Source: Candidatus Omnitrophota bacterium
GTDB taxonomy: Bacteria > Omnitrophota > Gorgyraeia > Zapsychrales > Fredricksoniimonadaceae
NCBI GenBank assembly: GCA_028865345.1
Contig: JAGWKL010000001.1
Coordinates: forward strand, 157,489 to 221,488
Direction: 5' to 3'
DNA length: 64,000 nucleotides
The notes beneath the pieces are model-generated. The model did no database searches. It saw only the letters and a program-made list of their open reading frames with translations, and was not told the origin of the DNA. Shown piece after piece: positions 47,955 to 64,000 of the stretch. Numbering within the stretch: the stretch's first letter is position 1; each line of letters opens with the position of its first letter. A program made the position numbers and the translations under genes.

Positions 47955-48629
47955 CTAGAAGCCCCTTTGGAACAGCAGCCGCAAATGCTGCACTTCATTG
48001 AGCGTATACTGCGGCTGGGCCAAGAGACTTTGATCAATAATTTTAGAGGAAGGCATGAACAATTGCAGCACGTACTGGCGTGAGGCGCCGATAAGATTCT
48101 GGATCTCTTTTAAGTCCTCTTCGGAACATAAGGGCCTGACCAGCGTTGTCCTGAACTGATGGCGCAGGCCGCTGTTGATGATCAAATCAATGCTGGATTT
48201 GATGCGGTCGAAGTCAATCTTGATACCGACGGCCTTTCCATAATTGGCCGGAGAAGTCTTTAAGTCCATGGCAATAAAATCCACCAGCTTGCGTTCAATG
48301 ACAGAGGCCAGAACATCAGGATTGCTGCCGTTGGTGTCCAGCTTGACCGCGTAGTGCATGGATTTTAATTGCCTAAGGAAATCCGCCAACCCCTGCTGGA
48401 TGGTAGGCTCCCCGCCGGTGACCACCACTCCTTCCAGGCGGCCTTTGCGTGATTCCAGGAACTCCAGGACCATCGATTCATCAAGCGGTTCCTCAAAGAG
48501 CTTAGGGCATGCCAGCTGGGAATTATAGCAGTAGCCGCAGCGGAAATTACAACCCTGCGTAAAAACAATGGCCGCCATTTTCCCCGGATAATCGATGAGA
48601 GAAAATTGCTGGAATCCCCCTATGCGCAT
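47955..48629 (-). CDS. nrdG: anaerobic ribonucleoside-triphosphate reductase activating protein (radical SAM)
   Basis: Radical-SAM cluster motif CNFRCGYCYN and the NrdG-family core. I take the start at MRIGGFQQF, which overlaps the nrdD stop by about 10 nt. Confidence 0.8.
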   Translation of the reverse strand: MRIGGFQQFSLIDYPGKMAAIVFTQGCNFRCGYCYNSQLACPKLFEEPLDESMVLEFLESRKGRLEGVVVTGGEPTIQQGLADFLRQLKSMHYAVKLDTNGSNPDVLASVIERKLVDFIAMDLKTSPANYGKAVGIKIDFDRIKSSIDLIINSGLRHQFRTTLVRPLCSEEDLKEIQNLIGASRQYVLQLFMPSSKIIDQSLLAQPQYTLNEVQHLRLLFQRGF

Positions 48630-50722
48630 AAATGGTAGGTCGCGCGCTTCTTGAACTCCTCCTTCTTGCCCTTGTTCCATTGCTTGACCGGCCGCAAATA
48701 CCCCACAACACGGGAATAGACCTCACATTCGCAACCGCACGTCCCGCACTCCGGATGTTCCCCGGCCAGATAGCCGCAGCTCGGGCAGACACTGAAGGTG
48801 GGCGTGATGGTAAAGTACGGCAAACGGTATTGCTGGCAAATACAACGCACCAGGCTCTTTAACGCCGTCGCATCAATGATGCGCTCTCCCACAAAACCAT
48901 GCAATACCGTGCCGCCGGTATAAAGCGTTTGCAGGGCATCCTGATGGTCCAATGCCTCGAAAATATCGTCGGTATGCTCCACCGGCAAATGGGTGGAGTT
49001 GGAATAAAACGGCTCATGCCCCTGTGTATAACGCTCTTCGTTGGCGCAGATGATATCAGGAAACATCCCCTTGTCCAATTTCGCCAGACTGTAGGAGGTC
49101 CCTTCGGCCGGTGTGGCCTCCAAGTTATAAATATTACCCGTCTCCTTCTGGTAATCCAATAATTTGTTTCTCATGAATTCCAGCACGCGCACGGCGAAAT
49201 CTTTGCCCTGGGGGCCGGAGATATTCTGGCCCAACAAATTCAAGCAGGCCTCATTCATCCCCAAAAGACCGATGGTCGAAAAGTGGTTTTTCCAATACTG
49301 GTCAAAACGTTTCTTGATATTGCGCAGATAGAACTTGATATACGGATATAAATTCTCCTCGGTAAACTGCTCCAGCACCTTGCGCTTGATCTCCAGGCTT
49401 TGCCTGGCCAGGTCCATTTTCTCTGCCAGCATCGCTAAAAATTCAGTTTCGTCCTTTGCCAAGTACCCGAGACGCGGCAGGTTGATGGTGACGACTCCTA
49501 TGGAGCCGGTCAACGGTGAGGCCCCGAACAGCCCCCCGCCCCGGCTGCGCAGCTCGCGGTTGTCCAGACGCAGGCGGCAGCACATGCTGCGCGCGTCCTC
49601 GGGGCTCATATCGGAATTGATAAAATTCGAAAAATACGGAATACCGTATTTGGCCGTCATCTCCCAGAGCAGGCCCAGGTTGGGGTTGTCCCAGTCAAAA
49701 TCCTTGGTCATATTATACGTCGGGATGGGAAAGGTGAACACGCGGCCTTTGGCATCCCCGGCAAGCATTGCCTCAAGAAAAGCCTTATTGAACATGTCGA
49801 GCTCTTTTTGGAATTCACCGTAGGTCTCTTTTTGTACCTGGCCGCCGATGATGACGCCCTGATGGACGAAATAGCTGGGAACGGTCAAATCCATGGTGAT
49901 ATTGGTAAACGGCGTCTGGAAACCGACGCGGGTGGGCACATTGATATTGAATACGAATTCCTGCAGGACCTGCTTGACGCCTTCATAAGAAAGCCCATCG
50001 TAACGGATGAAGGGGGCCAAGAGCGTGTCAAAATTCGAAAAGGCCTGGGCGCCGGCGGCTTCCCCTTGCAACGTATAGAAAAAATTGATGATCTGCCCCA
50101 GTGCCGTGCGCAAATGCTTGGCCGGTTTGCTTTCCATTTTCCCTGAAACGCCCTTGAAGCCCTGGATCAACAGATCCTGCAAATCCCAACCCACGCAATA
50201 AACACTGAGCAGCCCCAGATCATGGATATGAAAATCGCCGTTTTGGTGCGCTTCCTTGACAGGAACAGGATAGATTTTGTTCAACCAGTAAATTTTGCTG
50301 ACCTCGGATGAGATATAGTGATTTAACCCCTGAAGGGAGTAGGCCATATTGCTGTTCTCATTGACGCGCCAGTCGTTCTGCCGCAGGTATTGGTCCACGA
50401 GGTCGGTGTTGAATTTTGAGGCGATGGCGCGCATCTCGGCATGCTGCTGGCGGTAAAGGATATAGGCCTTGGTGGTTTTGCGGTAGGGGGAAGAAATCAG
50501 GACATCCTCGACAATGTCCTGGATATTTTCCACCGTCGGACTCTCGGGGAACATCTGCTGGGCGATGTTGACCACCCTGACCGCGAGCTTTTGGGCGACT
50601 TCCAGATCAAATTCTCCGGTGGCCTGTCCGGCTTTGGCGATCGCCCGGACGATCTTCTGAGGGTCAAAATTTTCTGATTTCCCATTGCGTTTGACAATCG
50701 TGGTAAACAAGCTGACAGCCAT
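48620..50722 (-). CDS. nrdD: anaerobic ribonucleoside-triphosphate reductase (class III), glycyl-radical enzyme
   Basis: 700 aa. The N-terminal ATP-cone is MAVSLFTTIVKRNGKSENFDPQKIVRAI. The C-terminal Zn-ribbon is CPSCGY...CGTCGCEC. The glycyl-radical motif is SRVVGYLRPV. Confidence 0.9.
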   Translation of the reverse strand: MAVSLFTTIVKRNGKSENFDPQKIVRAIAKAGQATGEFDLEVAQKLAVRVVNIAQQMFPESPTVENIQDIVEDVLISSPYRKTTKAYILYRQQHAEMRAIASKFNTDLVDQYLRQNDWRVNENSNMAYSLQGLNHYISSEVSKIYWLNKIYPVPVKEAHQNGDFHIHDLGLLSVYCVGWDLQDLLIQGFKGVSGKMESKPAKHLRTALGQIINFFYTLQGEAAGAQAFSNFDTLLAPFIRYDGLSYEGVKQVLQEFVFNINVPTRVGFQTPFTNITMDLTVPSYFVHQGVIIGGQVQKETYGEFQKELDMFNKAFLEAMLAGDAKGRVFTFPIPTYNMTKDFDWDNPNLGLLWEMTAKYGIPYFSNFINSDMSPEDARSMCCRLRLDNRELRSRGGGLFGASPLTGSIGVVTINLPRLGYLAKDETEFLAMLAEKMDLARQSLEIKRKVLEQFTEENLYPYIKFYLRNIKKRFDQYWKNHFSTIGLLGMNEACLNLLGQNISGPQGKDFAVRVLEFMRNKLLDYQKETGNIYNLEATPAEGTSYSLAKLDKGMFPDIICANEERYTQGHEPFYSNSTHLPVEHTDDIFEALDHQDALQTLYTGGTVLHGFVGERIIDATALKSLVRCICQQYRLPYFTITPTFSVCPSCGYLAGEHPECGTCGCECEVYSRVVGYLRPVKQWNKGKKEEFKKRATYHLCA

Positions 50723-51008: not shown

Positions 51009-51062
51009 GACCGTTCTCCTTTTTTAATAAAGCACTACCTGTTGATAATAGGAGATGGTATG

Positions 51063-51108
51063 ACCACTACATATTGTGGTTAATCTTAATACCACCCCTT
51101 GACGTGGT
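51063..51108 (-). promoter_or_regulatory. candidate tandem NrdR boxes upstream of the DUF2934-nrdD-nrdG unit
   Basis: Read on the minus strand there are two ACCAC-N8-GTGGT palindromes 28 bp apart. ACCACAATATGTAGTGGT is a close match to the NrdR-box consensus acaCwAtATaTwGtgt. ACCACGTCAAGGGGTGGT is more degenerate. Confidence 0.45.
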
Positions 51109-51120
51109 AAATCAGTACAA

Positions 51121-51140
51121 CTACGTAGAAAACTACGTAG
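51121..51140 (-). terminator. possible intrinsic terminator of the cytochrome operon
   Basis: Two copies of the self-complementary octamer CTACGTAG separated by AAAA, 3 nt after the TAA of the 19-haem gene. The transcript would form an 8-bp hairpin (CUACGUAG-UUUU-CUACGUAG) followed by UUGUACUGAUUU. Confidence 0.4.
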
Positions 51141-51143
51141 GCC

Positions 51144-53933
51144 TTATTTGTACCCGAAGATCATGGTAAAAATAATGCACACGACCAAAACGAGCCCAAG
51201 GCTCAGGGCCGTCCAGCCGAAGATCCGGATGGCCAGAATTTTCCCCGGCGACAAAGGCTCTGCCAAATTCTTTTCGAGTTCGCCGCGGGCGACCAAGGCT
51301 TCATATTCCTTGGGCCGTTCGCGCTTTAAATCCTCGATGGACATGCGTCCGGTAAAGATCACCGTGTCCATAGGAAATTTCTCCGGCCTGAAATGGGTGT
51401 TGAAGAAATGCACCGTAAAAATAAACCCGGCAGCCAGCAAAGCCTCATCGCTGTGGACGATGGTGGCCACATTGATGACCCATCCGGGCAATACATGCGT
51501 GAAGGCTTCGGGAAACCAAAGCATCAATCCCGAGGTACCGATGACCATGACCCCCCAAAGCACGGCAAAATAATCAAATTTTTCCCAATATGTCCACCGC
51601 CCGTATTGCGGATATGGCCCTTTGCCCATGTACCATTTCACTGTGACTAAGAATTCACGCCAGTCTTTTTTTGTAAAAAGAATGGTATCGGGTCCGAAAA
51701 GCATCTCTTTGAAACTTCTTTTCTCAAGTCGTTTTTGGAGAAAGACCTGCCTCAAATGCGCAAAGAAGATGCCCAAAAGGGTCACCGCGGCACAACGGTG
51801 CAGGAACCCTGAAACCGCATAGCCGCCCAAAAGCTTCGAGATGAACAGCGCCCACGGCGTGTACGAAAATTTCAGCGTCATACCGGTGATCGTCAAGGTC
51901 AGGAAGCTGCAGATCATGATGATATGGAGGACCCGGTAAAATACAGGGAAACGCACATATTGTTTTTCCGTCGAGACAATATGTTTTTGAGGATAAAGCC
52001 TTCTCATTTCCAGGGATTTGGGCAGCCACAAAAGCGTATGGAAAAGGCTGACGCTGAATGTCCCCACCAGTAAAGCGGTCATGGCCCAAAAAGTCCAGAA
52101 TATCCAAGGGTATTTCTTGGGGTCATGGTGGGTGGCGTGGGTCAAATAACCGGCAAAACGCCTGTTGGCGCCCGCGTGGCACTTTTGACATGTATGGACG
52201 ATGTTCCAGTAACTCAAGGTCGATCGGGGATCTGTCACAGGAAAGATCTCATGGGACCCGTGGCAATCCTGGCATTTAGCGGCTTTCGCATACCCGAGTT
52301 TAGAAATTTTTCCATGCACAGTCTGGAAATAGGTCGAGGCGATCGCCTGATGGCATTTGCCGCACGTATTCATAATATCGAATCTAAAGGCGTTCTCGTC
52401 CGTCCTTTTAATGGTGTGCGCGGTATGACAATCATTGCAGGCAGGCAGTCGGGCCGAATCCTTGTGCCGGCCTATGGCATGGACGCTTTTCATGTACTTT
52501 TCATAAACGCCCTGATGGCATTGGGAGCAGGTCCTGGCAATGTTCCTGCGGTTCACGGTGGACCGCGGATCAGCGGCGGGCAGTTGTTCGTGGGCGGTGT
52601 GACAGCTGACACAGGTGGCGGCCACGACCAGCCCGCTTTCCAAAAGCCCCTGGCCATGGATGCTTTCAATGTAATTCGTGGTGATATTATGTTCCGGGCC
52701 TTTGTAAAGTACCGCCGCCTTATGACCTTCCCTGTGGCAGCGGGCGCAAAGAGCAGGGATATTGGTCGGATAGGTGGGCGACCTGATGTCCTTGTGGGAC
52801 AAAATTCCGTGGGTGCCGTGGCATACCCTGCACGACGGGGCATTAGGATTTCCCTGGCTCCATAATTTCCCGTGCGTCCCTCGCCGGTACGCCGCCACTT
52901 GTTGGCTGTGGCAGATGGAACAATCCACTCTTTTAGTGATCGTCTCACAGGGCCGGGTGTGGGAGGCAGAGACCTGGGTATGGCACTGGGCGCAGGCGAC
53001 CTTGGCATGGACTGAACCGTTGAATTGCTGTTCGTCGATGAAAAGCGACCGGTGGTCTTTGGAAGAGACGATTGTTTTCTTGCCGTGGCAGGTCAGGCAA
53101 TCTTGGTTGGCTTCTCCCATTGGATAATAGACCCGGCGTATCTTGTGGGGCTGGTGGCAATCCACGCACACAGGGATGACCTGCGGGTTCTTTTCCCATA
53201 ACTTGCCGTTGATGATCTTGCGATGGACACGCTCAATCTGGCTGTGGCATTGCAGGCAGGTCTTGACGATGTTGGCACGGGCAATGGACGAACGCGGGTC
53301 GGTGAAAGGAAGAATATCATGGGCCCGATGACAGGAGGCGCAGGTAGCGGTGACGTTGAGCCCTTTTTTAAGAAGAGCCTCCCCGTGCATGCTGTCGGAG
53401 TAATTTTCCAATATATGCTTCTCGGGGATCTGCCTTTGTTGCGAAACCGGCTTGCCCTCGCTATGGCAGGAACCGCAGACAAAAGGAATGTGAAACGGCG
53501 CCACCGTCGAATTTGGGTCTTTTACGGGAAGAATATAGTGGTTGCCGTGGCAATTGAAGCATTCCGGGGCCAGTTTGTCCCCGCGTGCCCGTGCCCGGCC
53601 GTGAATGCTGTCGGAAAACAGCGCCTCCTGCCGTGTGTGGCAGCGCCCGCAATCCACCAGGGCCACTGCCGTCTTATGCGGGAAATCACTGCCGACTAAA
53701 TCCGTATGACAATCCGTACAAAGTTGTTTGCCGTGAACAGACGCCTGGAATTTATCCTGGTCAACGAACGGCGCCTGGGTCGCATCTCCATGGCAGGCCA
53801 GACAATCGTCATTGGTCGCAGCGCTTTTGACGGCCGCAGGAGGACTTGCGGGGGCGCTCTGGGCATGAACGGTCCATGGTACGGTCAGCAGTACCAGTAT
53901 AAGAATAAAAGATTTTGGAATTCGGACGCCCAT
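51144..53933 (-). CDS. fusion of a periplasmic 19-haem cytochrome c domain with a C-terminal polytopic dihaem cytochrome-b-type membrane domain (CbcL-like architecture)
   Basis: The start is taken at MGVRIPKSFILILVLLTVPWTVHA, the signal-peptide Met at 53933; the ORF-track N-terminus overlaps the upstream gene. There are 19 CxxCH motifs, from CLACH to CQKCH. About 6 C-terminal TM helices carry intramembrane His (FHTLL, LHII, FLHRC, FAHL, IVHSD, TVHFF), as in HydC/FdnI/PhsC-type cytochrome b. Confidence 0.8.
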   Translation of the reverse strand: MGVRIPKSFILILVLLTVPWTVHAQSAPASPPAAVKSAATNDDCLACHGDATQAPFVDQDKFQASVHGKQLCTDCHTDLVGSDFPHKTAVALVDCGRCHTRQEALFSDSIHGRARARGDKLAPECFNCHGNHYILPVKDPNSTVAPFHIPFVCGSCHSEGKPVSQQRQIPEKHILENYSDSMHGEALLKKGLNVTATCASCHRAHDILPFTDPRSSIARANIVKTCLQCHSQIERVHRKIINGKLWEKNPQVIPVCVDCHQPHKIRRVYYPMGEANQDCLTCHGKKTIVSSKDHRSLFIDEQQFNGSVHAKVACAQCHTQVSASHTRPCETITKRVDCSICHSQQVAAYRRGTHGKLWSQGNPNAPSCRVCHGTHGILSHKDIRSPTYPTNIPALCARCHREGHKAAVLYKGPEHNITTNYIESIHGQGLLESGLVVAATCVSCHTAHEQLPAADPRSTVNRRNIARTCSQCHQGVYEKYMKSVHAIGRHKDSARLPACNDCHTAHTIKRTDENAFRFDIMNTCGKCHQAIASTYFQTVHGKISKLGYAKAAKCQDCHGSHEIFPVTDPRSTLSYWNIVHTCQKCHAGANRRFAGYLTHATHHDPKKYPWIFWTFWAMTALLVGTFSVSLFHTLLWLPKSLEMRRLYPQKHIVSTEKQYVRFPVFYRVLHIIMICSFLTLTITGMTLKFSYTPWALFISKLLGGYAVSGFLHRCAAVTLLGIFFAHLRQVFLQKRLEKRSFKEMLFGPDTILFTKKDWREFLVTVKWYMGKGPYPQYGRWTYWEKFDYFAVLWGVMVIGTSGLMLWFPEAFTHVLPGWVINVATIVHSDEALLAAGFIFTVHFFNTHFRPEKFPMDTVIFTGRMSIEDLKRERPKEYEALVARGELEKNLAEPLSPGKILAIRIFGWTALSLGLVLVVCIIFTMIFGYK

Positions 53934-53935
53934 AC

Positions 53936-55759
53936 CTAATCTCTGCTGCGGCCATGAAGCCACGACCAATTGCCCGGATAAACATCGGGATCGAAAATGA
54001 CGAAATATCCGTGCCAGATGATAATGGTGACACAGGCCAGAATGGCCTCGTACAAATGGACCGTCCTGACCACATCATAAAACCATTTGGGAAACATCCT
54101 TAAAAACCAAACTTCACTGAACATCAATACACCGGTCGCCACCATCACCAGGGAACCCCACAGCAGGGCCCAGTACTCTAATTTCTGCACATAACTATAA
54201 ACACCGTCGGGCTTTGGCTTGTCTTTACACCGGCCGAAATAATATTGGAAGCCCTGAAAAAGCTGTGTAAAATCCTCTTTTCTGATGCTTAAAGCTTTTA
54301 ACTGCCAGAGGCCTTTTTTCGTGAAAAACAAATAATAGAGGTGATAGAGTGCCAGGGCACAAAATACAAGGCCTGTGCCGCGATGCCCCCATCTCAACCA
54401 GTCATTGTGCCCGAAAAACATGAAGGACCACCAGGTTTGCGGGTACTTCAGGGAAAACCCGGTGTAGGCCAAAATGATAAAGGTCGCCGTTAAAATAAAA
54501 TGCTGACATCGTTCATTGAAACCCATGCACTCCCTGCCCTGCTGCAGAGAATGGCGGTAATGCGCCGCAGCTTTCTTGGAAAAATCAAGAACGTTATGCA
54601 ATAAGAGAATGCCCGAGACAAAAAAGATCAGGAAAACATAAAAGCACCGCACCCAATCGTTGACAGGATTGCCTCCGTTCTTAAGCCCCCCATGGACCAA
54701 ACCTTGCGCCACCCGCGCCCCGATGCCCGGGTGGCATTGACCGCAGGTCTTCTCCAGGTTCCTGGGGTTGATCGTCGAACGCGGATCCGATGACGGAAGG
54801 ATCTCATGCGCCCCGTGGCAGGACGCGCAATTGGCCGCGGTCAGCGTCCCCTGCTGCATCGCAAGACCGTGATAGCTTTGCATATAGCTACCCAATACAT
54901 TGCCGGGAAGGCCGTAGGCGGCATTGATGCGTTGGGCTGCATGGCATTGACCGCAGGTCTGCGGGATGTTCGCCGAGGAGACCATCGACGATGCCCTTTG
55001 GACCGCTTCGATGTTGTGCTCTCCATGGCAATCGGTACAGACAGGGGTGTCCCTGCTGCCCGCGGCCAATGCCTGCCCGTGGATTCCGCGAGCATACTGC
55101 TTGTATTCTTCCTTATGGCACTTACCGCAAGTCTCGGGGATATTGACCCAGTATAAGCGGGACAATCTATTGGCGGGCTTATTAATGTCGTGCGCCCCAT
55201 GGCAATCGCTGCACACGGCGGCCTTCATGTCCGTCCCTTTTTGAAACTCAAGCCCGTGAACGCTCTTCAAATAGGTCTTGCCTTCCTTGGTCAAAAGAGC
55301 GCTGTGTAGTTTCTGATGGCATCCCGAGCACGTGAGAGGGATGTTCTTGCGGTTGACCGGTGAACGAGGGTCATCGGCCTCTAATATCGCGTGAGGGTCC
55401 CCGTGGCAGGCCGTGCAGGAAGTCTCCGACGAAAAGACTGCGGCCATGCCCCTGGCATGGTCGCTGCGGCTAACGCCCAAGGCTTCTTTCTCATGACAAA
55501 CGGCGCAATCGACTTTTCGGAGTTTGTCAGCGTGAGGAAGCCCCTTGATGTCCTTATGGCAATCGATGCAGTCTAACGTTTGATGGACAGAATTGTTAAA
55601 GGCCTTTGGGTCAATAGCCGGGGCATTGTCCGCATGGCAGCTAAGGCAATCCTGGTTGGTCAGCTTAACTGGCGCTTGGGGAGCTTGCTGGGCCGTGGCA
55701 CAAACGCTCACCAGAACCGATAAAAAAAAGGTCCCTGAAAGACCTATGGTGTTTTTCAT
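53936..55759 (-). CDS. paralogous fusion of an 11-haem cytochrome c with a cytochrome-b-type membrane domain
   Basis: Signal peptide MKNTIGLSGTFFLSVLVSVCATAQQ; the start is taken there, and the ORF-track start at 55843 overlaps the upstream gene. There are 11 CxxCH motifs, then a C-terminal 5-6 TM domain homologous in pattern to that of the 19-haem protein (WVRCFYVFLIFFVSG..., His in TMs). Confidence 0.8.
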   Translation of the reverse strand: MKNTIGLSGTFFLSVLVSVCATAQQAPQAPVKLTNQDCLSCHADNAPAIDPKAFNNSVHQTLDCIDCHKDIKGLPHADKLRKVDCAVCHEKEALGVSRSDHARGMAAVFSSETSCTACHGDPHAILEADDPRSPVNRKNIPLTCSGCHQKLHSALLTKEGKTYLKSVHGLEFQKGTDMKAAVCSDCHGAHDINKPANRLSRLYWVNIPETCGKCHKEEYKQYARGIHGQALAAGSRDTPVCTDCHGEHNIEAVQRASSMVSSANIPQTCGQCHAAQRINAAYGLPGNVLGSYMQSYHGLAMQQGTLTAANCASCHGAHEILPSSDPRSTINPRNLEKTCGQCHPGIGARVAQGLVHGGLKNGGNPVNDWVRCFYVFLIFFVSGILLLHNVLDFSKKAAAHYRHSLQQGRECMGFNERCQHFILTATFIILAYTGFSLKYPQTWWSFMFFGHNDWLRWGHRGTGLVFCALALYHLYYLFFTKKGLWQLKALSIRKEDFTQLFQGFQYYFGRCKDKPKPDGVYSYVQKLEYWALLWGSLVMVATGVLMFSEVWFLRMFPKWFYDVVRTVHLYEAILACVTIIIWHGYFVIFDPDVYPGNWSWLHGRSRD

Positions 55760-55815
55760 CAAACCGCTAACCGTCATATGCGCCCGTAAATAATCCCAGA
55801 CGTATGCCGCCTGTT

Positions 55816-57324
55816 TCATCCCCCCGTATGACAGTCCGAGCAATTGGTCGTCTTCCAGGAATCGTCATCATAAAACGGATGCTGGAATTCCAGGCCGTTG
55901 ATGCTCTTTTGCACGGCGGTGCCGCTGCCCTGTTCGACGATGATATGGCAAAGAGTGCATTTGCGCTCAATGACTTTTCCATCGGCGGACTTATGCTCAT
56001 TGTCGTGGCACCGGAAACACCCCCGTGAAATCATGTGCCCGATGTTGTCCGGATAATCGTCCCAACGCGATTTCATTTCCGGAAAGAAATTTTGTTCGTA
56101 CAGCAGGGTGATTTCTTCAACAGCCTGCTCAACGGCAGGGCGGTTCTTGGTGTAATAAGCAAAGTACTTTTGTTTGTAATAGTCCGTTAATTTCGAACGG
56201 ATCTGCTTTTCGGCCTGACTTGTAGAATTATATTTATCGCCGAGAACTTCGACCCCCTCCGACTTTATCATGGGAATTGATGGACTGATCTTCCCCTGGG
56301 CCAGGGCCCGGTTCATCAAGACATCAGGCGCTTCAAAGCGGTGGGCGGCGCGGTTATGGCAATCGATGCAATCCATTCTCCTGATCTTGTCCTGAGGGGG
56401 ATTGACTTTTTTGTAAGGAGAGTTCTTGGACGTATAGATCGTGACCTTCCCCGATTTGTCCACCGTCTTGACCCAGCTGATATGCTGGCGTTTGGCGTCG
56501 TCGGCGACGTAGAAGATCTCATTATTGAAATACATGTGCGCGTGAATGCCGGCCTCGCCGTTTTTCCCGTTCCCGACACGCATCAACAGGTTGATTCTCC
56601 AAGGCGGGGTTTGGCTGGGATCATCCGCGTAATAAACCTTGTTGAGCAAAATGGCGCTGAAAGGCTTACCCGGCCAATGGCACTGTTCACAGATCTCCTT
56701 GGCCGGTCTCAAGGTGTTCAGGGGAGCCGGGGTCGGACGCTGATATCTGCCGTCAAAAGTCTTAACGAGCATTTTGGTCCCCGCCACTTTATAACGCAGG
56801 TACCAGTTGGCACCGGAACCCACATGGCACTCAACACACCTGACCCGTTCGTGGGGAGAATGGTTGTGCGTGTCATATTCGGGCTTCATGATCTGATGGC
56901 AGGTGAGCCCGCAAAATTGGGTCGATTCCGTATAATTAAAAGCCCTATAGGAACCGATGGCGGTCATGACCAGCAGGGTGACCGTGCCGATCATGAAGAT
57001 AACAACAGCGTTTTGGTGGGTCGCTAAAGAAAGATCGATGACGATGGGCTTGGGCTTTCCTTCTTTCGAGCCGCGCAAAAGCCGCCCGCGTTTCAAGGAG
57101 GCCCCTATCGGGATCAGTATAAGCCCGACAATGAGAAATGGCGGCAAGAAGACATAGGTGAGCAGCCCTAAATAAATGCTGGACTTAGGGGAAGCAAAAT
57201 CGATCGCGAACAAAAAGAGCTCGCAAAGAAGCACGAACAAAGACAGCCCCACACCGATATAGGTAATGTTGTTGTAAAAGCTATCGGAGAACCGCTGTTT
57301 CTTCTTTTTGAGCTCATTGTCCAT
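55816..57324 (-). CDS. inner-membrane multihaem cytochrome c with 3 N-terminal TM helices and 7 haem motifs (ImcH / NapC-NirT-CymA-like role)
   Basis: 502 aa with three hydrophobic helices in the first 130 aa. There are six CxxCH motifs (CVECH, CEQCH, CIDCH, CFRCH, CTLCH, CSDCH) and one CX3CH (FCGLTCH). Confidence 0.7.
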   Translation of the reverse strand: MDNELKKKKQRFSDSFYNNITYIGVGLSLFVLLCELFLFAIDFASPKSSIYLGLLTYVFLPPFLIVGLILIPIGASLKRGRLLRGSKEGKPKPIVIDLSLATHQNAVVIFMIGTVTLLVMTAIGSYRAFNYTESTQFCGLTCHQIMKPEYDTHNHSPHERVRCVECHVGSGANWYLRYKVAGTKMLVKTFDGRYQRPTPAPLNTLRPAKEICEQCHWPGKPFSAILLNKVYYADDPSQTPPWRINLLMRVGNGKNGEAGIHAHMYFNNEIFYVADDAKRQHISWVKTVDKSGKVTIYTSKNSPYKKVNPPQDKIRRMDCIDCHNRAAHRFEAPDVLMNRALAQGKISPSIPMIKSEGVEVLGDKYNSTSQAEKQIRSKLTDYYKQKYFAYYTKNRPAVEQAVEEITLLYEQNFFPEMKSRWDDYPDNIGHMISRGCFRCHDNEHKSADGKVIERKCTLCHIIVEQGSGTAVQKSINGLEFQHPFYDDDSWKTTNCSDCHTGG

Positions 57325-57329
57325 TCGCC

Positions 57330-59495
57330 CTACCAGTTAAAGCCTAATTTCATCAAAAAGATATTGGCTGAATAATTCCCCGACCCCACCGTGGGATTGT
57401 CCTTATAAGCCGCGTATTCATACTGGGGGCCTATTTTCAACCACTTGTGCCAGGTCCAGTCAAGGCTGGTAGTATAATTGAACATCTTAAAGTCAGACCC
57501 ATAAGGCACGCCTATGCCGGAATCGACATAATTGTTTGAGATCGTATAGGACGCGGTATTGGTCCAAACCCAATTCTCCGTTGGACTATACGTGGTCGAA
57601 AAAAGGAAGCTGTTGTCCCCTGAATTAAAATCGGGGATATAGGAAGGCCCGCCCTCGGCCGATGTCCCTGCCGAAGATGCCGCGATCGTCCTGACATAAT
57701 TTTCCACGTGCGAATACGAGAGCATCAATAAAAGCGTATCGATGGGCTGCAGCGTGATATCGTAGGTGAATGCTGATGTCAGCATATGATTTTCAGAGAT
57801 GTTATAATTCCCGTCTGCAGGGAGAGGATCTGAAGAACCGCCGGCCGATGGATCCAACTGAGGATTATAGACCGTATCGGAGAATTGGTATTTCAATGAG
57901 TTTTGCAGCCAGTGAAACGGTTTCCAGGTCAGTGTCGAAGTTTCGTCCACCCCTTTTTCCCTTAAGGAACTCATCAGAACAAGCCCGCTGGCAGAAGGAT
58001 TTGAAATTGTATCATATCCGCTGTACTGATCATGGACCCTGGCCTGGGTCGAAAAAATAATAAACCGGTTGGGATAAGTCCTGGCTCCCACGGTCCATGA
58101 TTCTTTCTGAGTTCTATTGAGCCTCTCCAAGTTAGAAAAAGTATTACTCGTTGAGCCCCCGGGAAGAGCAGTATAGGACTCATCGACCCAGTTCCTGTCC
58201 TGCTGCCATTCACCGTCCATATACACGCTGGTATGGGGAATGCCATAAAACCGCAGCCCCACATGCTCCCCGGTTTGGTCTTCACGGTTCTTCATACTGG
58301 CGTCATCTTCCCCTGTAGTACCAGCTGCATAATAGGCGGAATCACCCTCACTACCCTTATGCTCATATTTGACGTCGGTAAGAAAATCCACATTTTTCGT
58401 CAAATTGGAATTCAGGTTTCCCACCAAGACATGGTCATCTTCCGAAGCACTTGAATAATTCCATCCGGAGGTGCCAGACGTTACAGGGGTATAAACAACG
58501 CCGTCTGTAGATGAGAATTCCGCCTGCTGCATCAGGTCCGTGTCATGGATATGGTTATAATGGTATCCGACCGCGGCGTAGGTGTTGTCGTTGAGCATCC
58601 ATTTTTCCGCCCTCACCCCTGCGCCGAAGAGCTTGGCATTCGGGGATTCATTATATGTATTAAGTTGATTGGGGGTTGAAGTGGTGTCATTAAGATACTG
58701 CATATACTGGACATCATTATTGTAATCAAATTCCGCTTTTTGATCTGCCTTGATGGTCACTCCCGCGATCTTCTTCTTTTCTTTCAGGGTGATGGTGTCC
58801 ACATAACTATTTAACGACTCCCATGCAGGGCCGATTTTCCTTTCGGCGCCGGATGCGGTCTGTCCGGCCGCATAGACCGGGGTCCATTCTAAAAGCGACT
58901 TATCGCCGTTCTTGGTATTGTGCTCATAGGCTATGTCCAAATAAGGATCGCTGATCGGCCCTAAGCCTGCTTCCAATTTAAAATAACTGATGTCCATCTG
59001 TAAAGCAGGACTGTTAGCCTGGTACCCTTGATATTGAGAGGAAATTGAACCATAATTCGTATAACTGGCGGGAGGAGGATTACCGGCGGTGTTAGTAACG
59101 ACCTGGTTCGGATAAAACCCGCCTGTCCCATCATACCATTTTCTAAAGGCGTTATAGTCTACCCGCAAAAAGCCCACGTCCCCGTCCTGCAGGACCAAAT
59201 GGCCGGTGCCCGTGTCGGTCCCCGGGAATGCACTGCCTTGCACTTCCAAGGATATATTCTTATTAATATCTTTAACAAATGAGATATTGCTTATTCCTCC
59301 ATTGTTGTCCGTATTGGCCTGCATCCAGTTAAGGGCTTCGAACTTGCCCACATTGCCCTTGACGCTGGCATATTGTACCGGTTCAAGAGTGATGCTAAAA
59401 GGCGTGGTATCCGCATCCTGGGCCAATGCCAGATATCCCACCTGCGTCATGTACGCTGCCACCATGATTGAGAGTAAAATACGAAAGATTTTCAT
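57330..59495 (-). CDS. large outer-membrane beta-barrel protein (MtrB/MtoB/PioB-like porin of a porin-cytochrome conduit)
   Basis: 721 aa with signal peptide MKIFRILLSIMVAAYMTQVGYLALAQ. It is rich in Gly/Thr/Asn/Tyr with alternating amphipathic strands. The C-terminal ...LMKLGFNW ends in an aromatic residue. It is flanked by multihaem cytochromes. Confidence 0.6.
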   Translation of the reverse strand: MKIFRILLSIMVAAYMTQVGYLALAQDADTTPFSITLEPVQYASVKGNVGKFEALNWMQANTDNNGGISNISFVKDINKNISLEVQGSAFPGTDTGTGHLVLQDGDVGFLRVDYNAFRKWYDGTGGFYPNQVVTNTAGNPPPASYTNYGSISSQYQGYQANSPALQMDISYFKLEAGLGPISDPYLDIAYEHNTKNGDKSLLEWTPVYAAGQTASGAERKIGPAWESLNSYVDTITLKEKKKIAGVTIKADQKAEFDYNNDVQYMQYLNDTTSTPNQLNTYNESPNAKLFGAGVRAEKWMLNDNTYAAVGYHYNHIHDTDLMQQAEFSSTDGVVYTPVTSGTSGWNYSSASEDDHVLVGNLNSNLTKNVDFLTDVKYEHKGSEGDSAYYAAGTTGEDDASMKNREDQTGEHVGLRFYGIPHTSVYMDGEWQQDRNWVDESYTALPGGSTSNTFSNLERLNRTQKESWTVGARTYPNRFIIFSTQARVHDQYSGYDTISNPSASGLVLMSSLREKGVDETSTLTWKPFHWLQNSLKYQFSDTVYNPQLDPSAGGSSDPLPADGNYNISENHMLTSAFTYDITLQPIDTLLLMLSYSHVENYVRTIAASSAGTSAEGGPSYIPDFNSGDNSFLFSTTYSPTENWVWTNTASYTISNNYVDSGIGVPYGSDFKMFNYTTSLDWTWHKWLKIGPQYEYAAYKDNPTVGSGNYSANIFLMKLGFNW

Positions 59496-59515
59496 GTCTT
59501 GTTCCTCTCTCTAAG

Positions 59516-60298
59516 TTAATAACGAAAATAATGATCAAAATTAGACCCATGAGGCGCAGAATGACAACCCGCGCTCCAGCATGTTCCATAAACAAAATCA
59601 TTATAAATATGCTGAGCACTGGTACCGTTCTGGCCATGGCCATAAGGGAAATTATTCATGGCATGGCAGCGTAAACACAGGTTATAATCCCGCGCGATCA
59701 GCATTTTGTCATTAACCGACCCGTGCACCTGGTGGCAGGACGTACAACCGTCCTTCATGGCATCATGCTCCCAGATATACGGCCCTCGTTTGTCGCTGTG
59801 GCATTTGAAACAGACATCGTTAACACCGTTCTCTGACGTAGCCGTCCAGGGACGGACATCTATCCCATGGGCGTCGTGGCAGTCGGTGCAGCTCATCTTA
59901 CCTTCCAGGACAGGATGATGGTAAGGCAGACGGAATTGCATCTTTTTATCGGTATGGCAGGTAAAACAGACCTCCGGATCATTTTTGGGGTTGATGATAT
60001 TGTTCGTCCCTCCCGAGGCATCCACGTGGATACTGCCCGGACCATGGCAGGTCTCGCAATCCTGGGCGCCGGTGGTTTCGTTCTTGATATGGAGACGCCC
60101 ATGCGTCGAAAGCTTGTATTCACGGCCTTCTTTTTCATGACATGTCACGCAGGTATCCATGCCCACATACGTGGCTTTCTTCAAATACAACATCTCGTTG
60201 ACCTTGTTCTGATCCGCCCGGGCAACTGAAATTCCCCCGGCCCAAAACAATCCCATTGCCAGCCCCAAGAGAACCATCCACGATTTTTGACCGATCAT
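59516..60298 (-). CDS. periplasmic 8-haem cytochrome c (MtrA/MtoA/PioA-like)
   Basis: 260 aa with signal peptide. There are seven CxxCH motifs (CVTCH, CETCH, CFTCH, CTDCH, CFKCH, CTSCH, CLRCH) plus one CX4CH (CWSAGCH). The haem density is about one per 30 aa. Confidence 0.8.
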   Translation of the reverse strand: MIGQKSWMVLLGLAMGLFWAGGISVARADQNKVNEMLYLKKATYVGMDTCVTCHEKEGREYKLSTHGRLHIKNETTGAQDCETCHGPGSIHVDASGGTNNIINPKNDPEVCFTCHTDKKMQFRLPYHHPVLEGKMSCTDCHDAHGIDVRPWTATSENGVNDVCFKCHSDKRGPYIWEHDAMKDGCTSCHQVHGSVNDKMLIARDYNLCLRCHAMNNFPYGHGQNGTSAQHIYNDFVYGTCWSAGCHSAPHGSNFDHYFRY

Positions 60299-60362
60299 AA
60301 GATGCCTTTCTGTTTATCCGTAAGATACTTGCCTTCCCTAAAAATAAGGTTTACACCTGTCC

Positions 60363-60632
60363 TTACTTCTTAATCGGCCCCACTTGTTTATACGTATCAG
60401 CGGTTGGCTTCTGAGCACCTGCCGCTTTGATGACGGCCTTGCCATAATCATTGGGATCATGCTGGCCGTCCGCTTTTTTAGGCATTCTATCCACGTGACA
60501 ATCGATGCACTTGGGCCTTGAATCAGGATAGGCTGCCTTGTAGGCCTTGATCTGCGCAAAATCAGCCCTGGCTGCCGCGCTCCAAAGGACCAGGCCAAAA
60601 GTGAAGCTTAAAACGACCGCTGTTTTCATCAT
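60363..60632 (-). CDS. small periplasmic monohaem cytochrome c (MtoD-like position)
   Basis: Signal peptide MMKTAVVLSFTFGLVLWSAAARA and a single CIDCH. The start is uncertain; the ORF track extends to 60662, which would overlap the hemA stop by 4 nt. Confidence 0.55.
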   Translation of the reverse strand: MMKTAVVLSFTFGLVLWSAAARADFAQIKAYKAAYPDSRPKCIDCHVDRMPKKADGQHDPNDYGKAVIKAAGAQKPTADTYKQVGPIKK

Positions 60633-60658
60633 AGTTCTCATAAGCTCCTCCTTAATGT

Positions 60659-61702
60659 TCACATCTGAGACATTTGATTTATCAAAGAAACCTTTTCCAG
60701 GGCCCCGAAGAATTCACCAATTTTCTGGGCGATCATTTCTTCGACCGTTCCCACCGCCGACAGGCGCTTTCGGGTGTTGCCTTCGACGATCCTGTCCAAA
60801 TCATCCACGGTCACAAGCGTGACATTTGTCATACCGCCCACCTCGGGAGCGACATTGCGGGGCATGGAAATGTCGATCAATACCAACGGCCGCGCTGTCC
60901 TTGTTTTCATGACCGTATCAACCAGGTCACGTTCGATCAAATGGTGAGTGCAGCTGGCCGAGCAAATGCACACATCCGCCTGGGACAAAACTTCCCTCAT
61001 TTCCCAAAAGCCAACGGCTGTACCGCCGCTTTCACGGGCCAGTTCCTGGGCATTTTCCATTGTCCTGTTCATGATATAAATGTCGGCGACACCCTTTTTA
61101 GCCAATTGCTCAACCGCCAGACGTCCCATTTTTCCCGAACCCACGATCAACACGGTCTTGCCTTGCAGCGTGCCCAGGACATTTTGCGCCATCACGACCG
61201 ACGCCCAGCTTACCGATGAGCCGCCGAAATCGATGGACGTCTCATGGCGCGCTTTCTTGCCGGTCTGCACAACAAGATTGGAAAGGATATTGAAAGTTTT
61301 GCCCATCATGCCGTGCGCGCGTGAAAATTCAAACGCTTCCTTGACCTGCCCCAGGATCTGTTTTTCCCCGATGATCAGGGAATCCAGGCCCGTGGTCACG
61401 CGCAACAAATGCTCCACGGCTTGACTGCCGGTGAAGGTATAGAAATGGCCCGTTAAATCTGCCTGCGGAGGGATTTTCTTGATCTTAAAAATTGCATCAA
61501 TGAGCGCTTGAGGCCGGCCCTCAATGCTGTTAGCGTAAATCTCCGTTCGATTACAGGTCGATAAAACAAACGCTTCCGCAATGCGGGGATCATTTTGAAG
61601 CTCGCTTAAAAGCAATTCGCGCTCGATGGGCTGCAGGTAAAATTTCTCTCTGACATCTATTGAGGAAGTTTTATGATTTATACCGACGGCCAGAATATTC
61701 AT
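60659..61702 (-). CDS. hemA: glutamyl-tRNA reductase
   Basis: 347 aa with the catalytic-Cys motif VLSTCNRTEIY, a Rossmann NADPH domain (VLIVGSGKMGRLA) and a C-terminal dimerisation helix. Its start overlaps the stop of the receiver gene (ATGA). Confidence 0.9.
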   Translation of the reverse strand: MNILAVGINHKTSSIDVREKFYLQPIERELLLSELQNDPRIAEAFVLSTCNRTEIYANSIEGRPQALIDAIFKIKKIPPQADLTGHFYTFTGSQAVEHLLRVTTGLDSLIIGEKQILGQVKEAFEFSRAHGMMGKTFNILSNLVVQTGKKARHETSIDFGGSSVSWASVVMAQNVLGTLQGKTVLIVGSGKMGRLAVEQLAKKGVADIYIMNRTMENAQELARESGGTAVGFWEMREVLSQADVCICSASCTHHLIERDLVDTVMKTRTARPLVLIDISMPRNVAPEVGGMTNVTLVTVDDLDRIVEGNTRKRLSAVGTVEEMIAQKIGEFFGALEKVSLINQMSQM

Positions 61703-62079
61703 AGGTTGCCTTTGGGCGACAAAAGACGGTTGATCGTCGGAACAAGGCGGCGATCCAGGTCGCTTTTGTCGATAAAATCCTCCACATCCTTATGCCTTCC
61801 TAAGTCCTTCATGTCCTGCTTGGCATACATGGTCAAAATAATGATGCCGCAGGAATCATCCTGGCGTTTGATAAGGGAGGCCAGCTCCAGGCCGCTGATG
61901 CCCCTCGTTAAATGGATATCGATAATCACAACCTTAGGACGCCGCCTCAGGGCGATATCAATGCCCTCCTGGCCTGTCACGGCTTCCAAAATGTCCGCTT
62001 TGACGCCTTTCATAAGGATGAATCTCTTCATCGCTTCCCGGAACTCTTTGTGATCTTCGACGATCAATATGTTCTCCAT
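61699..62079 (-). CDS. stand-alone CheY-like response-regulator receiver protein
   Basis: 126 aa. The REC fold begins MENILIVEDH, with the phospho-acceptor Asp in VVIIDIHL and the conserved T/K. Confidence 0.85.
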   Translation of the reverse strand: MENILIVEDHKEFREAMKRFILMKGVKADILEAVTGQEGIDIALRRRPKVVIIDIHLTRGISGLELASLIKRQDDSCGIIILTMYAKQDMKDLGRHKDVEDFIDKSDLDRRLVPTINRLLSPKGNL

Positions 62080-62183
62080 AAATTTCTCATCGTTAAGGCA
62101 CGCTTCGCACTAATTAGAAGATACAGGAAGAGGGAAGGAATGAAAATTCGGTGAACTACTTAAGGAGGTACGTAGTATCACTT

Positions 62184-62215
62184 AAAAAGAGAACCTGTCC
62201 CCAGAACCGGGGACA
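62184..62215 (-). terminator. candidate intrinsic terminator after the histidine kinase / LuxR-RR pair
   Basis: The minus-strand transcript would form the hairpin UGUCCCC-gguucu-GGGGACA followed by GGUUCUCUUUUUAAG. It lies 20 nt after the LuxR-RR stop. Confidence 0.45.
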
Positions 62216-62234
62216 AAAGTGCTGCGGATTCGGG

Positions 62235-62879
62235 CTAAATCAACCCTTTGGCAATAGCGTATTTGACAAGGCCGGCGGCAGTCTTAATGCCCAGCTTGTG
62301 GATCAGCCGGCTGCGGTGGGTCTCAACGGTGCGGATGCTGATTTTTAATGAGGAGGCGATGTTCTTATTGGCGGCCCCCTTGACGATCATGGCCAGGACC
62401 TGCTTCTCACGGTTGGTCAATATCTGCAGGGAAGGGACATCGCCTCCTTCAATGGAACGCACATACTGCTCGGTGATGTATTCGGAAATCGCCGGTGAAA
62501 CAAAATTCTTGCCCTTCATAACAAGTTTAATGGCCATCACCAGCTGATCAAAAGCGCCGTCTTTGAGAATGTAGCCGCTGGCGCCGTGGGCCATCGCATA
62601 TTTGAAATGGTCGATGTCTTTTTGCATGGTCAATATCAGGACCTTTAATTTGGGATACCTTTGGCGCAATTCTTTGAGCGTCTCCAGGCCGTCCATTTGA
62701 GGCATGGACAGGTCCAATACCACACAATCGGTTCTGGCGGTTTTCAGCTTTTCCAGAAGGACTTCGCCGTTACCCGCCTCAGCCACCACTTTAAAGTCCT
62801 GGCTTTTGTCCAATAAACCCCTTAAACCCGCACGCAACATGGCATGGTCATCGGCGAGGATCACCCGGATTGCGCTCAT
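62235..62879 (-). CDS. NarL/FixJ-family response regulator (REC + LuxR-type HTH)
   Basis: 214 aa. The REC domain is RVILADDHAMLRAGL...DCVVLDLSMP. The LuxR HTH is LTNREKQVLAMIVKGAANKNIASSLKISIRTVETHRSRLIHKLG. Confidence 0.9.
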   Translation of the reverse strand: MSAIRVILADDHAMLRAGLRGLLDKSQDFKVVAEAGNGEVLLEKLKTARTDCVVLDLSMPQMDGLETLKELRQRYPKLKVLILTMQKDIDHFKYAMAHGASGYILKDGAFDQLVMAIKLVMKGKNFVSPAISEYITEQYVRSIEGGDVPSLQILTNREKQVLAMIVKGAANKNIASSLKISIRTVETHRSRLIHKLGIKTAAGLVKYAIAKGLI

Positions 62880-63943
62880 ATCTTCGTTCCCTTCACTGGA
62901 ATGTTAATAAGGATATCCGTCCCTTTTTTCAATGTCGACTGCAACTCTATGCGACCGCCTAAAAGCATGACCCTTTCCTTCATAGTCACCAGGCCCAGGC
63001 CCGTGGACCGGGAAGTCGCCACAAACCCTTTGCCGTTGTCGGAAATGCGGATCTTCAACTGGTCTTTGGCCACACGGACATCGACTCTGACGAGGCTTGC
63101 GGCGGCATGCTTGATGATATTGCCCATGGCCTCCTGGATGATACGGTATATATTAATGGCTTCGGCGTTAAACTTCAAGCTATCGATCTTATTGTGACGG
63201 AACTCTATCTCCAGGGACTTGGAGCGGTTGATTTCGTTGAACATCAATCTCAAGGCGGTGGTGAGTCCAAGCGTATCCAGCGTTGATGGCCTCATGCGCA
63301 TGGCCAGGTTGCGGGACTTTTCAATGATGCTGCCCAAATAGGCTATGATCTTCTCATGCTCTTTGCGCTCCTGGGAATTTCTTTTGGGATCCGGCAACCA
63401 TGCCGACTGGATCAGGATCTTCAAGGTGGCCAGCGATTGCCCCAGATCGTCATGGATGTCCCGCGCGATGCGGTTGGCTTCGCTCTCCTGCGCCTGGATG
63501 ATGCGCTGGGGGATGGCCTTGATCTCCTCTTCCATCAATTTGCGCGGGGTTATTTCCGTGCGGATGGAAACGTATTGGAACGGCTTGCCTTTATTGTTAA
63601 GAAAGGGAACGATGGTCGTATCCACCCAATAAATCGAGCCGTCCTTGGCCTTGTTGCGGATCTCGCCTTGCCACACCTTGCCATGGGCGATCGTACGCCA
63701 CAAGTCCCGAAAAAATTCCTTAGAATGGTAACCGGAATTGATGATCCGGTGGTCCCGGCCTAAAAGCTCTTGGCGGGTATACTTGGAAATCTCGCAAAAT
63801 TTATCATTGGCGTAGACGATCTTGCCGGTCTGGTCGGTAATGGCCACGATCGATGACACATCCAGGGCAAACTTAATATCCGTCAGTTCCTTGAGGGTCT
63901 TCTCGAGGGCGTATCTTTGGTAAAACGAACCGGGTATTGGCAT
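62876..63943 (-). CDS. cytoplasmic PAS-domain sensor histidine kinase (HisKA_3 / NarX-DegS type)
   Basis: 355 aa. An N-terminal PAS domain (SIVAITDQTGKIVYANDKFCEISKYTRQELLGRDHRII) is followed by a HisKA_3 H-box IARDIHDDLGQSL and HATPase_c motifs (ISDNGKGF, GLGLVTMKER). Its stop overlaps the LuxR-RR start. Confidence 0.85.
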   Translation of the reverse strand: MPIPGSFYQRYALEKTLKELTDIKFALDVSSIVAITDQTGKIVYANDKFCEISKYTRQELLGRDHRIINSGYHSKEFFRDLWRTIAHGKVWQGEIRNKAKDGSIYWVDTTIVPFLNNKGKPFQYVSIRTEITPRKLMEEEIKAIPQRIIQAQESEANRIARDIHDDLGQSLATLKILIQSAWLPDPKRNSQERKEHEKIIAYLGSIIEKSRNLAMRMRPSTLDTLGLTTALRLMFNEINRSKSLEIEFRHNKIDSLKFNAEAINIYRIIQEAMGNIIKHAAASLVRVDVRVAKDQLKIRISDNGKGFVATSRSTGLGLVTMKERVMLLGGRIELQSTLKKGTDILINIPVKGTKI

Positions 63944-64000
63944 AATTTAAAGGCAATTATACCACGACCGTCTTTAAAAACCATACCTAGTTTTGACAAA

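Follow-up and report, generated by a model that had tools for sequence, protein, structure and literature searches.

We analysed a window of 64,000 nucleotides from the genome of a Candidatus Omnitrophota bacterium (assembly GCA_028865345.1, contig JAGWKL010000001.1, positions 157,489 to 221,488). Our subject is a gene for a stand-alone receiver protein that lies between a putative two-component system and a group of cytochrome genes. Between 55.8 and 64 kb of the window every gene is on the minus strand. In the direction of transcription the genes encode a PAS-containing histidine kinase, a response regulator, the receiver-only protein, a short glutamyl-tRNA reductase (GluTR, the hemA product) and a putative MtrAB-like electron conduit, which consists of a monohaem cytochrome, an MtrA-family multihaem cytochrome, a putative porin and a NapC/NirT-like cytochrome (Table 1). 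The spacer between the regulator and receiver genes contains a terminator-like hairpin, a conserved operator and a putative promoter. The gene identities, the terminator and the coordinates given in a preliminary description of the window were all found as stated there, on the minus strand.

The start of the regulator gene overlaps the kinase stop by 4 nt, and the receiver and hemA genes share the sequence ATGA (61702..61699), which contains the stop of the former and the start of the latter. The ATG of the small cytochrome gene (60641), in contrast, lies 17 nt past the end of hemA and is served by a separate Shine-Dalgarno sequence, AAGGAGG; the further gaps between the downstream conduit genes measure 64, 20 and 5 nt. 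Since the receiver-hemA junction alone overlaps, the receiver, hemA and cytochrome genes form an operon-like cluster and not a chain of coupled genes. The translational coupling proposed in the preliminary description would thus apply to the receiver and hemA, but not to the cytochromes.

An identical receiver protein is encoded on two Candidatus Omnitrophica metagenome-assembled genome (MAG) contigs (GCA_028866185.1 and GCA_028870875.1), both of which run beyond the end of the window. Ahead of the kinase, in the direction of transcription, come on these contigs another receiver-only gene with cydA and cydB behind it, a gene for a 254-aa protein, resB-ccsA and a radical-SAM gene, the last of which directly precedes the kinase. 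An island for respiration and cytochrome biogenesis thus surrounds the triad of kinase, regulator and receiver. The hairpin between the regulator and receiver genes has a stem of 10 pairs (62217..62194), five of them G-C, with a loop of 4 nt followed by TTCTCTTTTT, and a folding energy of -13 to -15 kcal/mol. It has the longest stem among the eight terminator-like matches in 59400-64000, a class that is mildly enriched (8 found versus 4.5 +/- 1.9 expected). The hairpin-U terminator that had been proposed here is thus present, intergenic and on the coding strand, and its resemblance to an intrinsic terminator suggests that it ends the radical-SAM/kinase/regulator transcription unit.

A conserved triad of kinase, regulator and receiver

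Receiver orthologues, a scan of one genome per species and kinase orthologues together gave 13 distinct Omnitrophota loci. Twelve of them show the order kinase-regulator-receiver (window/L001, L003, L004, L005/L011, L008, L013, L014, L016, L017, L031, L032 and L033), with one gene inserted in L014 and an insertion sequence (IS) element in L032. In 12 loci the kinase and regulator genes adjoin each other and are co-oriented. The exception is L007, a 6.8-kb contig on which a radical-SAM gene is followed by the receiver and which lacks the kinase-regulator pair. What follows the receiver is less constant: hemA and the conduit in the window, L004, L005 and L033, but nrdD in L008, a hemerythrin gene in L013, moaA in L031, a LigT gene in L032 and a PAS-GGDEF gene in L007. 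In L003 a second HisKA_3 kinase and regulator come next, and only then hemA and the conduit. Its kinase-regulator neighbour is constant and its downstream gene varies, which makes the receiver a component of the signalling module without specificity for the cytochrome operon. The gene had been taken for a conduit-specific leader but is the third, constant member of the triad.

The hemA-conduit cassette, when present, is nevertheless always behind the receiver, in L003 with the second kinase-regulator pair in between, and the gene order of the conduit is kept in L003, L004, L005 and L033. The distance to hemA varies. The two genes overlap in the window and are 8 nt apart in the distant L033, which rules out that the close junction is unique to this genome. 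In L004 and L005 a spacer of 118-197 nt contains a separate, weaker hemA operator, and in L003 the second pair and a 271-nt spacer separate the receiver from hemA, which again has its own weaker operator. The second pair of L003 (10394-12057) starts 15 nt after the receiver stop and consists of a HAMP-HisKA_3 kinase and a NarL-type regulator with a different recognition helix.

The kinase contains PAS_9, HisKA_3 and HATPase_c domains (64.8, 36.6 and 54.5 bits in Pfam), with the PAS domain at residues ~28-135 and the H-box RDIH164DDLGQ. No membrane helix was detected, the maximum Kyte-Doolittle mean over 19 residues being 1.01. The protein is therefore a soluble, cytoplasmic kinase, in agreement with the preliminary description. 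Several of its orthologues carry the name 'NreB' in the annotation of JGI. Among solved structures its PAS domain is closest to PAS-A of MmoS from Methylococcus (3EWK; 60% identity over 103 residues, 155 bits), followed by the PAS domains of Aer (8DIK; 82 bits, 39% identity) and NifL (PAS1, 2GJ3; 61 bits). All three bind flavin adenine dinucleotide (FAD), and the flavin-pocket residues H53, N85 and R115 of Aer correspond to H132, N164 and R195 of MmoS (PMC9668731). In an alignment to the solved PAS domains H65, N97 and R128 of the kinase match the three Aer residues, and they are invariant across 11 orthologous kinases. A cofactor pocket, which the preliminary description had considered possible for either haem or FAD, is thus supported by the similarity to MmoS PAS-A and by the conserved His, Asn and Arg, and the predicted cofactor is FAD, not haem.

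The regulator combines a Response_reg domain (102 bits) with a GerE domain (64.8 bits), as expected for the NarL-type regulator that had been described next to the kinase. Its receiver (REC) domain has D10/D11, D56, T84 and K106, and the recognition helix of its GerE domain reads SIRTVETHRSRLIHKLG. The best NCBIfam matches are MctR and NarL (144 bits for the NarL model), both below the cut-off. In L001 it is the only DNA-binding protein called within the ~20-kb island.

The receiver itself consists of a Response_reg domain (PF00072; 63.1 bits versus a cut-off of 30.2, residues 4-113) and contains no other Pfam domain, so that its characterization as a stand-alone receiver without output domain stands. 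It has E8, D9, D54, T83, F102 and K105; the Asp, Thr and Lys (D54, T83, K105) whose loss would have spoken against a functional receiver are thus retained. In the alignment of 13 orthologues, which are 122-139 aa long, D54 and K105 are present without exception and position 83 is occupied by T or S. The alpha-1 motif DHK(D/E)FRE is conserved, its part DHK(D/E)FR almost invariably, and there is one near-invariant cysteine, C77. Comparison of the dimerisation and histidine phosphotransfer (DHp) helix of the kinase with alpha-1 of both receivers yields only two sequence groups, between which all three partners change together. A recent duplication of the regulator's receiver domain can be ruled out as the origin of the protein (20% identity, E = 0.02). 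An assignment to a subfamily through NCBIfam and the PDB failed, the scores for NarL, ActR, BtsR, Spo0F, NtrC1 and DesR being too close to separate. The receiver is 37% identical to the 122-aa receiver-only protein whose gene precedes cydAB. This paralogue heads a receiver-cydA-cydB unit with a 26-nt gap in L001 (529-3442), and the same arrangement is found in L003. Other related receiver genes, in L015 and L017, lie ahead of genes for PAS-GGDEF proteins.

A conserved operator upstream of the receiver gene

In a footprint alignment a TACGTA-like block is the single shared element of the regulator-receiver spacers, which are otherwise unalignable. In the window the operator reads TAAGTG-ATAC-TACGTA-CCTCCT-TAAGTA-GTTCACCGAATT (62184..62145, minus strand). 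It comprises the hexamers TAAGTG (62184..62179), TACGTA (62174..62169) and TAAGTA (62162..62157), whose starts are 10 and 12 bp apart, and a conserved extension after the third hexamer (62156..62145). Such an operator precedes the receiver in 10 triad loci (window, L003, L004, L005, L008, L013, L014, L031, L032 and L033), and in L007, where a radical-SAM gene comes before the receiver, it is located ahead of that gene. Moreover, hexamer arrays are found upstream of the radical-SAM-kinase-regulator operon, resB-ccsA, cydAB and nrdD, and hemA genes that are separate from the receiver have weaker sites of the form YSCGTG-TTAC-TACGTA. The hemA gene of the window has no operator of its own in the site scan. 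Arrays of TACGTA are also present in the divergent region upstream of the receiver-cydA-cydB unit of L001.

The element is rare. At no more than one mismatch the 64-kb window contains exactly two sites versus 0.04 expected (0.09 expected for a stricter pattern), and none were found in eight unrelated 20-kb control loci (160 kb). One of the two sites precedes the receiver and the other, at 51122-51139, a DUF2934-nrdD-nrdG cluster. The latter shows that the element is regulon-wide, and the regulon apparently includes the anaerobic ribonucleotide reductase; nrdD has an upstream operator also in L004 and L008. The conserved block is not a known RNA element, since a search of 50500-64000 against Rfam at E<=1 returned only two chance-level eukaryotic or archaeal matches.

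The preliminary description had suggested looking for NarL-type heptamer repeats in 62080-62234. Neither TACYYMT heptamers nor 7-2-7 sites (<=3 mismatches) are present in this interval, and their counts across the window are at or below chance. Thus, the interval contains no sites of the Escherichia coli type; it does contain a different conserved operator, which co-varies with the recognition helix of the regulator. In the loci with TACGTA operators this helix is conserved and of the TVETHRSR type, and the 10 triad loci in which the operator precedes the receiver are those whose regulators share the same helix. In L016 and L017, however, the helix reads TVEHHRANL where the others read TVETHRSRL, and the spacers contain another conserved block instead, GGTAG-N3-CTACCTAATTT. 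This block (L016, 6405-6558; L017, 4047-4345) lies ahead of a TATAAA box, and TACGTA arrays are absent. The triads of these two loci are more distant, with the kinase ~51% and the receiver ~37% identical.

In all aligned loci an invariant TAT..T is found 31-35 nt downstream of the third hexamer. In the window it is TATCTT (62123..62118), which is separated by a 17-nt spacer from a weak -35 element, TTTTCA (62146..62141). The promoter proposed here stems from this phylogenetic footprint: with a score of 8/12 the candidate is under the threshold of the sigma-70 consensus scanner, which reported no promoter in the receiver spacer. If it is correct, the hexamers would have their centres at about positions -48, -60 and -70 of a promoter whose -35 element is poor, an arrangement typical of activator dependence. 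An operator precedes the kinase-regulator operon in L001, L004, L005, L008 and L031, which looks like autoregulation. Taken together, these arrangements are suggestive of the adjacent NarL/FixJ-type regulator as the leading candidate to bind the TACGTA operator.

A proposed redox-control module with a putative feedback receiver

The reading that we favour, and to which we give about an even chance, is a three-component redox-sensing module composed of a flavin-PAS kinase, a regulator that acts on hexamer arrays and a feedback receiver, whose promoter also serves hemA and the conduit. The soluble kinase would sense redox state or oxygen through its FAD-type PAS domain and phosphorylate the adjacent regulator. 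The phosphorylated regulator would then bind two or three TACGTA-like hexamers and activate promoters with a weak -35 element. The predicted regulon would include the kinase operon, the receiver-only gene, hemA and the MtrAB-like conduit, resB/ccsA for cytochrome c maturation, cydAB and nrdDG. Just beyond the terminator of the regulator, the receiver would be transcribed from its own operator-controlled promoter, and it would most likely feed back on the same kinase, either as a phosphoryl sink or by direct inhibition as in FixT. In this genome hemA overlaps the receiver gene and lacks a separate operator, so that redox control over both haem synthesis and the conduit is predicted to enter solely at the receiver promoter. 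Production of the putative feedback protein would thereby keep pace with that of HemA and the conduit.

The closest documented design, likened by architecture, is FixL-FixJ-FixT of Caulobacter crescentus and Sinorhizobium meliloti, in which FixT, a single-domain receiver induced by FixLJ, inhibits the autophosphorylation of FixL and is needed for haem homeostasis (PMC7078487). Shared by both systems are a PAS kinase for oxygen or redox signals, a GerE-containing regulator and a receiver that consists of a single domain. The FixLJ system induces FixT, which in turn acts back on FixL, and here it is the receiver gene that carries the operator of the regulon. The FixLJ regulon includes high-affinity oxidases and haem biosynthesis, and the one predicted here cydAB and hemA. 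There are also differences. FixL senses via haem, whereas in our kinase an FAD-type PAS domain is combined with a DHp domain of the HisKA_3 type; FixT is induced via FixK, whereas here the operator is directly upstream of the receiver; and Caulobacter FixT has a four-cysteine Fe-S motif, in place of which the receiver has one conserved cysteine. The receiver is best regarded as the third component of a redox two-component system, and probably as a feedback modulator like FixT. The role as a phosphate sink suggested in the preliminary description is plausible, and that of a FixT-like kinase inhibitor fits equally well.

In its architecture the kinase is nearest to that of NreB-NreC of Staphylococcus, in which a small cytoplasmic HisKA_3 kinase with a single PAS domain and a NarL-type regulator control genes of anaerobic respiration. 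NreB senses oxygen via a [4Fe-4S] cluster bound by four PAS cysteines, whereas the PAS domain of the present kinase belongs with the FAD type of MmoS, Aer and NifL. NreA is a GAF-type nitrate receptor and not a receiver, and NreC sites are GC-rich palindromes. With MmoS, Aer and NifL the similarity is that of the FAD-PAS domain. MmoS is a larger multi-domain kinase, Aer a chemoreceptor and NifL an anti-activator. The kinase described here consists of one PAS domain joined directly to HisKA_3/HATPase_c, whereas the MmoS chain 3EWK shows two PAS domains. NarX/NarQ-NarL/NarP of E. coli likewise pair a HisKA_3 kinase with a REC-GerE regulator of anaerobic respiration, and the sites of both systems start with TAC, but the NarL operator is not found in the spacer here. 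The Nar kinases are membrane-bound nitrate sensors, and we know of no receiver-only partner of the Nar system. Finally, sink or modulator receivers such as CheY1 of S. meliloti and DivK have, as here, no output domain, an intact phosphorylation site and a position beside the presumed kinase. In those cases the partners are CheA or HisKA or hybrid kinases, and the processes controlled are chemotaxis or the cell cycle. As a redox two-component system to which an auxiliary receiver of a single domain is added, the system described here is of a known kind. What is genuinely new are the operator sequence and its predicted regulon, the predicted FAD-type sensor and the recurrent placement of hemA and the conduit behind the receiver.

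Several observations weigh against the favoured reading. The assignment of the operator to the regulator is based on linkage and on one covariation contrast between two groups; since there is a single contrast, the covariation is suggestive but short of proof. L007 has the operator in front of its radical-SAM-receiver unit but no kinase or regulator on the 6.8-kb contig, and in L032 a gene for a CRP-family regulator is found beside the kinase. The hairpin with T-run is limited to window/L001/L002 and L004 and is not evident in L003, L005 and L008. The receiver has the metal-binding D9 replaced by N in L004, L017 and P0004, which could mean that phosphorylation is dispensable and therefore argues against a pure sink. 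It lacks the four-cysteine Fe-S motif of the Caulobacter FixT type, its identity to the receiver domain of the adjacent regulator is as low as 20% (E = 0.02), and its NCBIfam scores hardly discriminate between NarL (38.7 bits), ActR (37 bits) and BtsR (36 bits).

The operator in L007 and the CRP-family gene in the L032 cluster therefore bring into play an unlinked global anaerobic or redox regulator as the protein that binds the TACGTA arrays. In that case the neighbouring two-component system would have other targets, and the receiver gene would just be one member of the global regulon. The predicted targets, nrdDG, cydAB and haem and cytochrome biogenesis, are typical for global oxygen regulators, and because every hexamer is palindromic the arrays fit many dimeric factors. 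We still consider this rather unlikely. The sites found are confined to the island around the regulator gene and absent from the other ~50 kb of the window, the site before the kinase-regulator operon in five loci resembles autoregulation, and the operator block differs where the recognition helix differs. Moreover, variable spacings of 10 or 12 bp and arrays of two or three units suit response regulators better than proteins that bind rigid palindromes.

A different role of the receiver has also to be weighed, namely that of an effector in an output branch, which is phosphorylated by the kinase and binds the short GluTR or another downstream product post-translationally, comparable to the effector-type single-domain receivers CheY, CpdR and DivK. 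The overlap with hemA in the window and the 8-nt gap in L033 suggest co-production in fixed proportion, the hemA-conduit cassette is always behind the receiver when present, the 37% identical paralogue precedes cydAB with a gap of 25-26 nt, and other members of the family precede PAS-GGDEF genes. Yet the downstream neighbour varies (hemA, a second kinase, nrdD, hemerythrin, moaA, LigT, GGDEF) whereas the kinase-regulator pair is constant, and in L004 and L005 hemA is 118-197 nt away and has its own operator, which makes such a role improbable. In a still broader version, which we regard as quite doubtful, the receivers of this family would be promoter-proximal, module-specific regulators, one with cydAB and another with hemA and the conduit, each of which is phosphorylated by the flavin-sensing kinase and directly targets its respective respiratory module; binding to the short GluTR would be one example. 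If true, a post-translational two-component branch would gate haem supply and the assembly of the electron conduit. It is very unlikely, on the other hand, that the receiver belongs to a different kinase (an orphan, a hybrid or the HAMP-HisKA_3 kinase of L003) and serves as a connector for a second signal. The second pair that follows the receiver in L003 after 15 nt and the ambiguous subfamily assignment of the receiver would fit this, but that second kinase is confined to one sister lineage, the neighbours of the receiver in 12/13 loci are the PAS kinase and its regulator, and no other kinase is near the receiver in the window. The partner-switch control proposed in the preliminary description, in which the receiver would sequester and release an anti-sigma-type partner to switch transcription of the conduit, would account for a receiver without output domain and for nothing beyond that. 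Genes for anti-sigma, STAS, PhyR-like sigma-mimic or extracytoplasmic function (ECF) sigma proteins are absent from the window cluster and from all related loci examined, and the promoter has a sigma-70-like -10 box, so that we drop this idea as highly implausible.

Omnitrophota are uncultured, and to our knowledge nothing is known about the regulation of their respiration or extracellular electron transfer. A literature search on Omnitrophota, multihaem and porin gave no Omnitrophota paper among the 12 best-ranked results. The favoured three-component module would provide a testable circuit, with a predicted flavin sensor, a TACGTA hexamer operator and a regulon that joins bd oxidase, cytochrome c maturation, haem, the conduit and anaerobic ribonucleotide reductase, and of which the receiver is the most constant predicted target. 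With the operator sequence, regulon members could be predicted in further genomes of Omnitrophota. The module appears to be another design of the FixLJ-FixT type, in a distant phylum and with different sensor and kinase domains, and its main value would be as an entry point for studying how an uncultured phylum regulates extracellular electron transfer.

HemA, the conduit and neighbouring features

Among the genes of the presumed conduit operon hemA is the first with a metabolic function. HemA matches TIGR01035 with 346.8 bits over profile positions 1-341 of 416, and its only Pfam domains are GlutR_N and Shikimate_DH. It thus lacks the C-terminal dimerisation domain but retains the catalytic motif STCNRTE. 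The short form is not a truncation artefact, since a length of 346-348 aa is conserved in L003, L004, L005 and L033. The MtrA-family assignment is based on Pfam and on a match to chain A of PDB 6R2Q, which we take to be MtrA of the Shewanella MtrCAB complex. The PDB name table labels 6r2q_A 'Cystathionine beta-synthase', which looks erroneous; the 122-bit match to a 333-residue multihaem chain fits MtrA. The putative porin, a 721-aa putative outer-membrane protein, matches no Pfam or NCBIfam family, the MtrB/PioB model included.

Table 1. Positions of the genes and regulatory features discussed in the text.
Feature	Position in window	Strand	Description or basis
Kinase	63943..62876	-	355 aa; PAS_9, HisKA_3, HATPase_c (Pfam)
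Regulator	62879..62235	-	214 aa; Response_reg and GerE (Pfam)
Terminator-like hairpin and U-run	62217..62184	-	terminator scan and folding
Operator, three hexamers and extension	62184..62145	-	footprint alignment, site scans
Putative receiver-hemA promoter	62146..62118	-	footprint; putative assignment
Receiver-only gene	62079..61699	-	126 aa; Response_reg alone (Pfam)
hemA, short glutamyl-tRNA reductase	61702..60659	-	347 aa; TIGR01035, Pfam
Monohaem cytochrome	60641..60363	-	Pfam
MtrA-family multihaem cytochrome	60298..59516	-	Pfam; 6R2Q_A match, 122 bits
Putative porin	59495..57330	-	721 aa; adjoins the MtrA-like cytochrome gene
NapC/NirT-like cytochrome	57324..55816	-	Pfam
Second operator copy	51139..51112	-	TACGTA-N6-TACGTA-N4-TACTGA; upstream of DUF2934-nrdD-nrdG
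nrdD	50722..48620	-	downstream of the small DUF2934 gene
nrdG	48680..47955	-	after nrdD

Downstream of the conduit, two large proteins of 635 and 941 aa (51144-55843, minus strand) combine multihaem c-type regions with a cytochrome b561-type membrane domain in a single polypeptide. The second operator of the window comes just after the last cytochrome gene and is followed by the palindromes ACCACAATATGTAGTGGT (51040-51139, minus strand), which presumably resemble NrdR boxes.

The radical-SAM gene upstream of the kinase was considered as a candidate for NrdG and rejected, because a separate nrdG follows nrdD. Its product of 228-262 aa has only weak MoaA-, PflA- and NrdG-like scores, which do not assign a function. 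The gene, which is distinct from true nrdG, is almost always found just upstream of the kinase or of nrdD and has an operator before it (L001, 7420-8106; L004, 7277-8065; L031, 4362-5150; L033, 4191-4979); at the locus of the window it lies beyond the window end. In L032 (6626-7952 and 11017-11880) a CRP/FNR-family regulator gene and a hemerythrin gene are directly upstream of the kinase. The element inserted between the regulator and receiver genes of this locus carries an IS1595 transposase gene, and the receiver operator is still kept.

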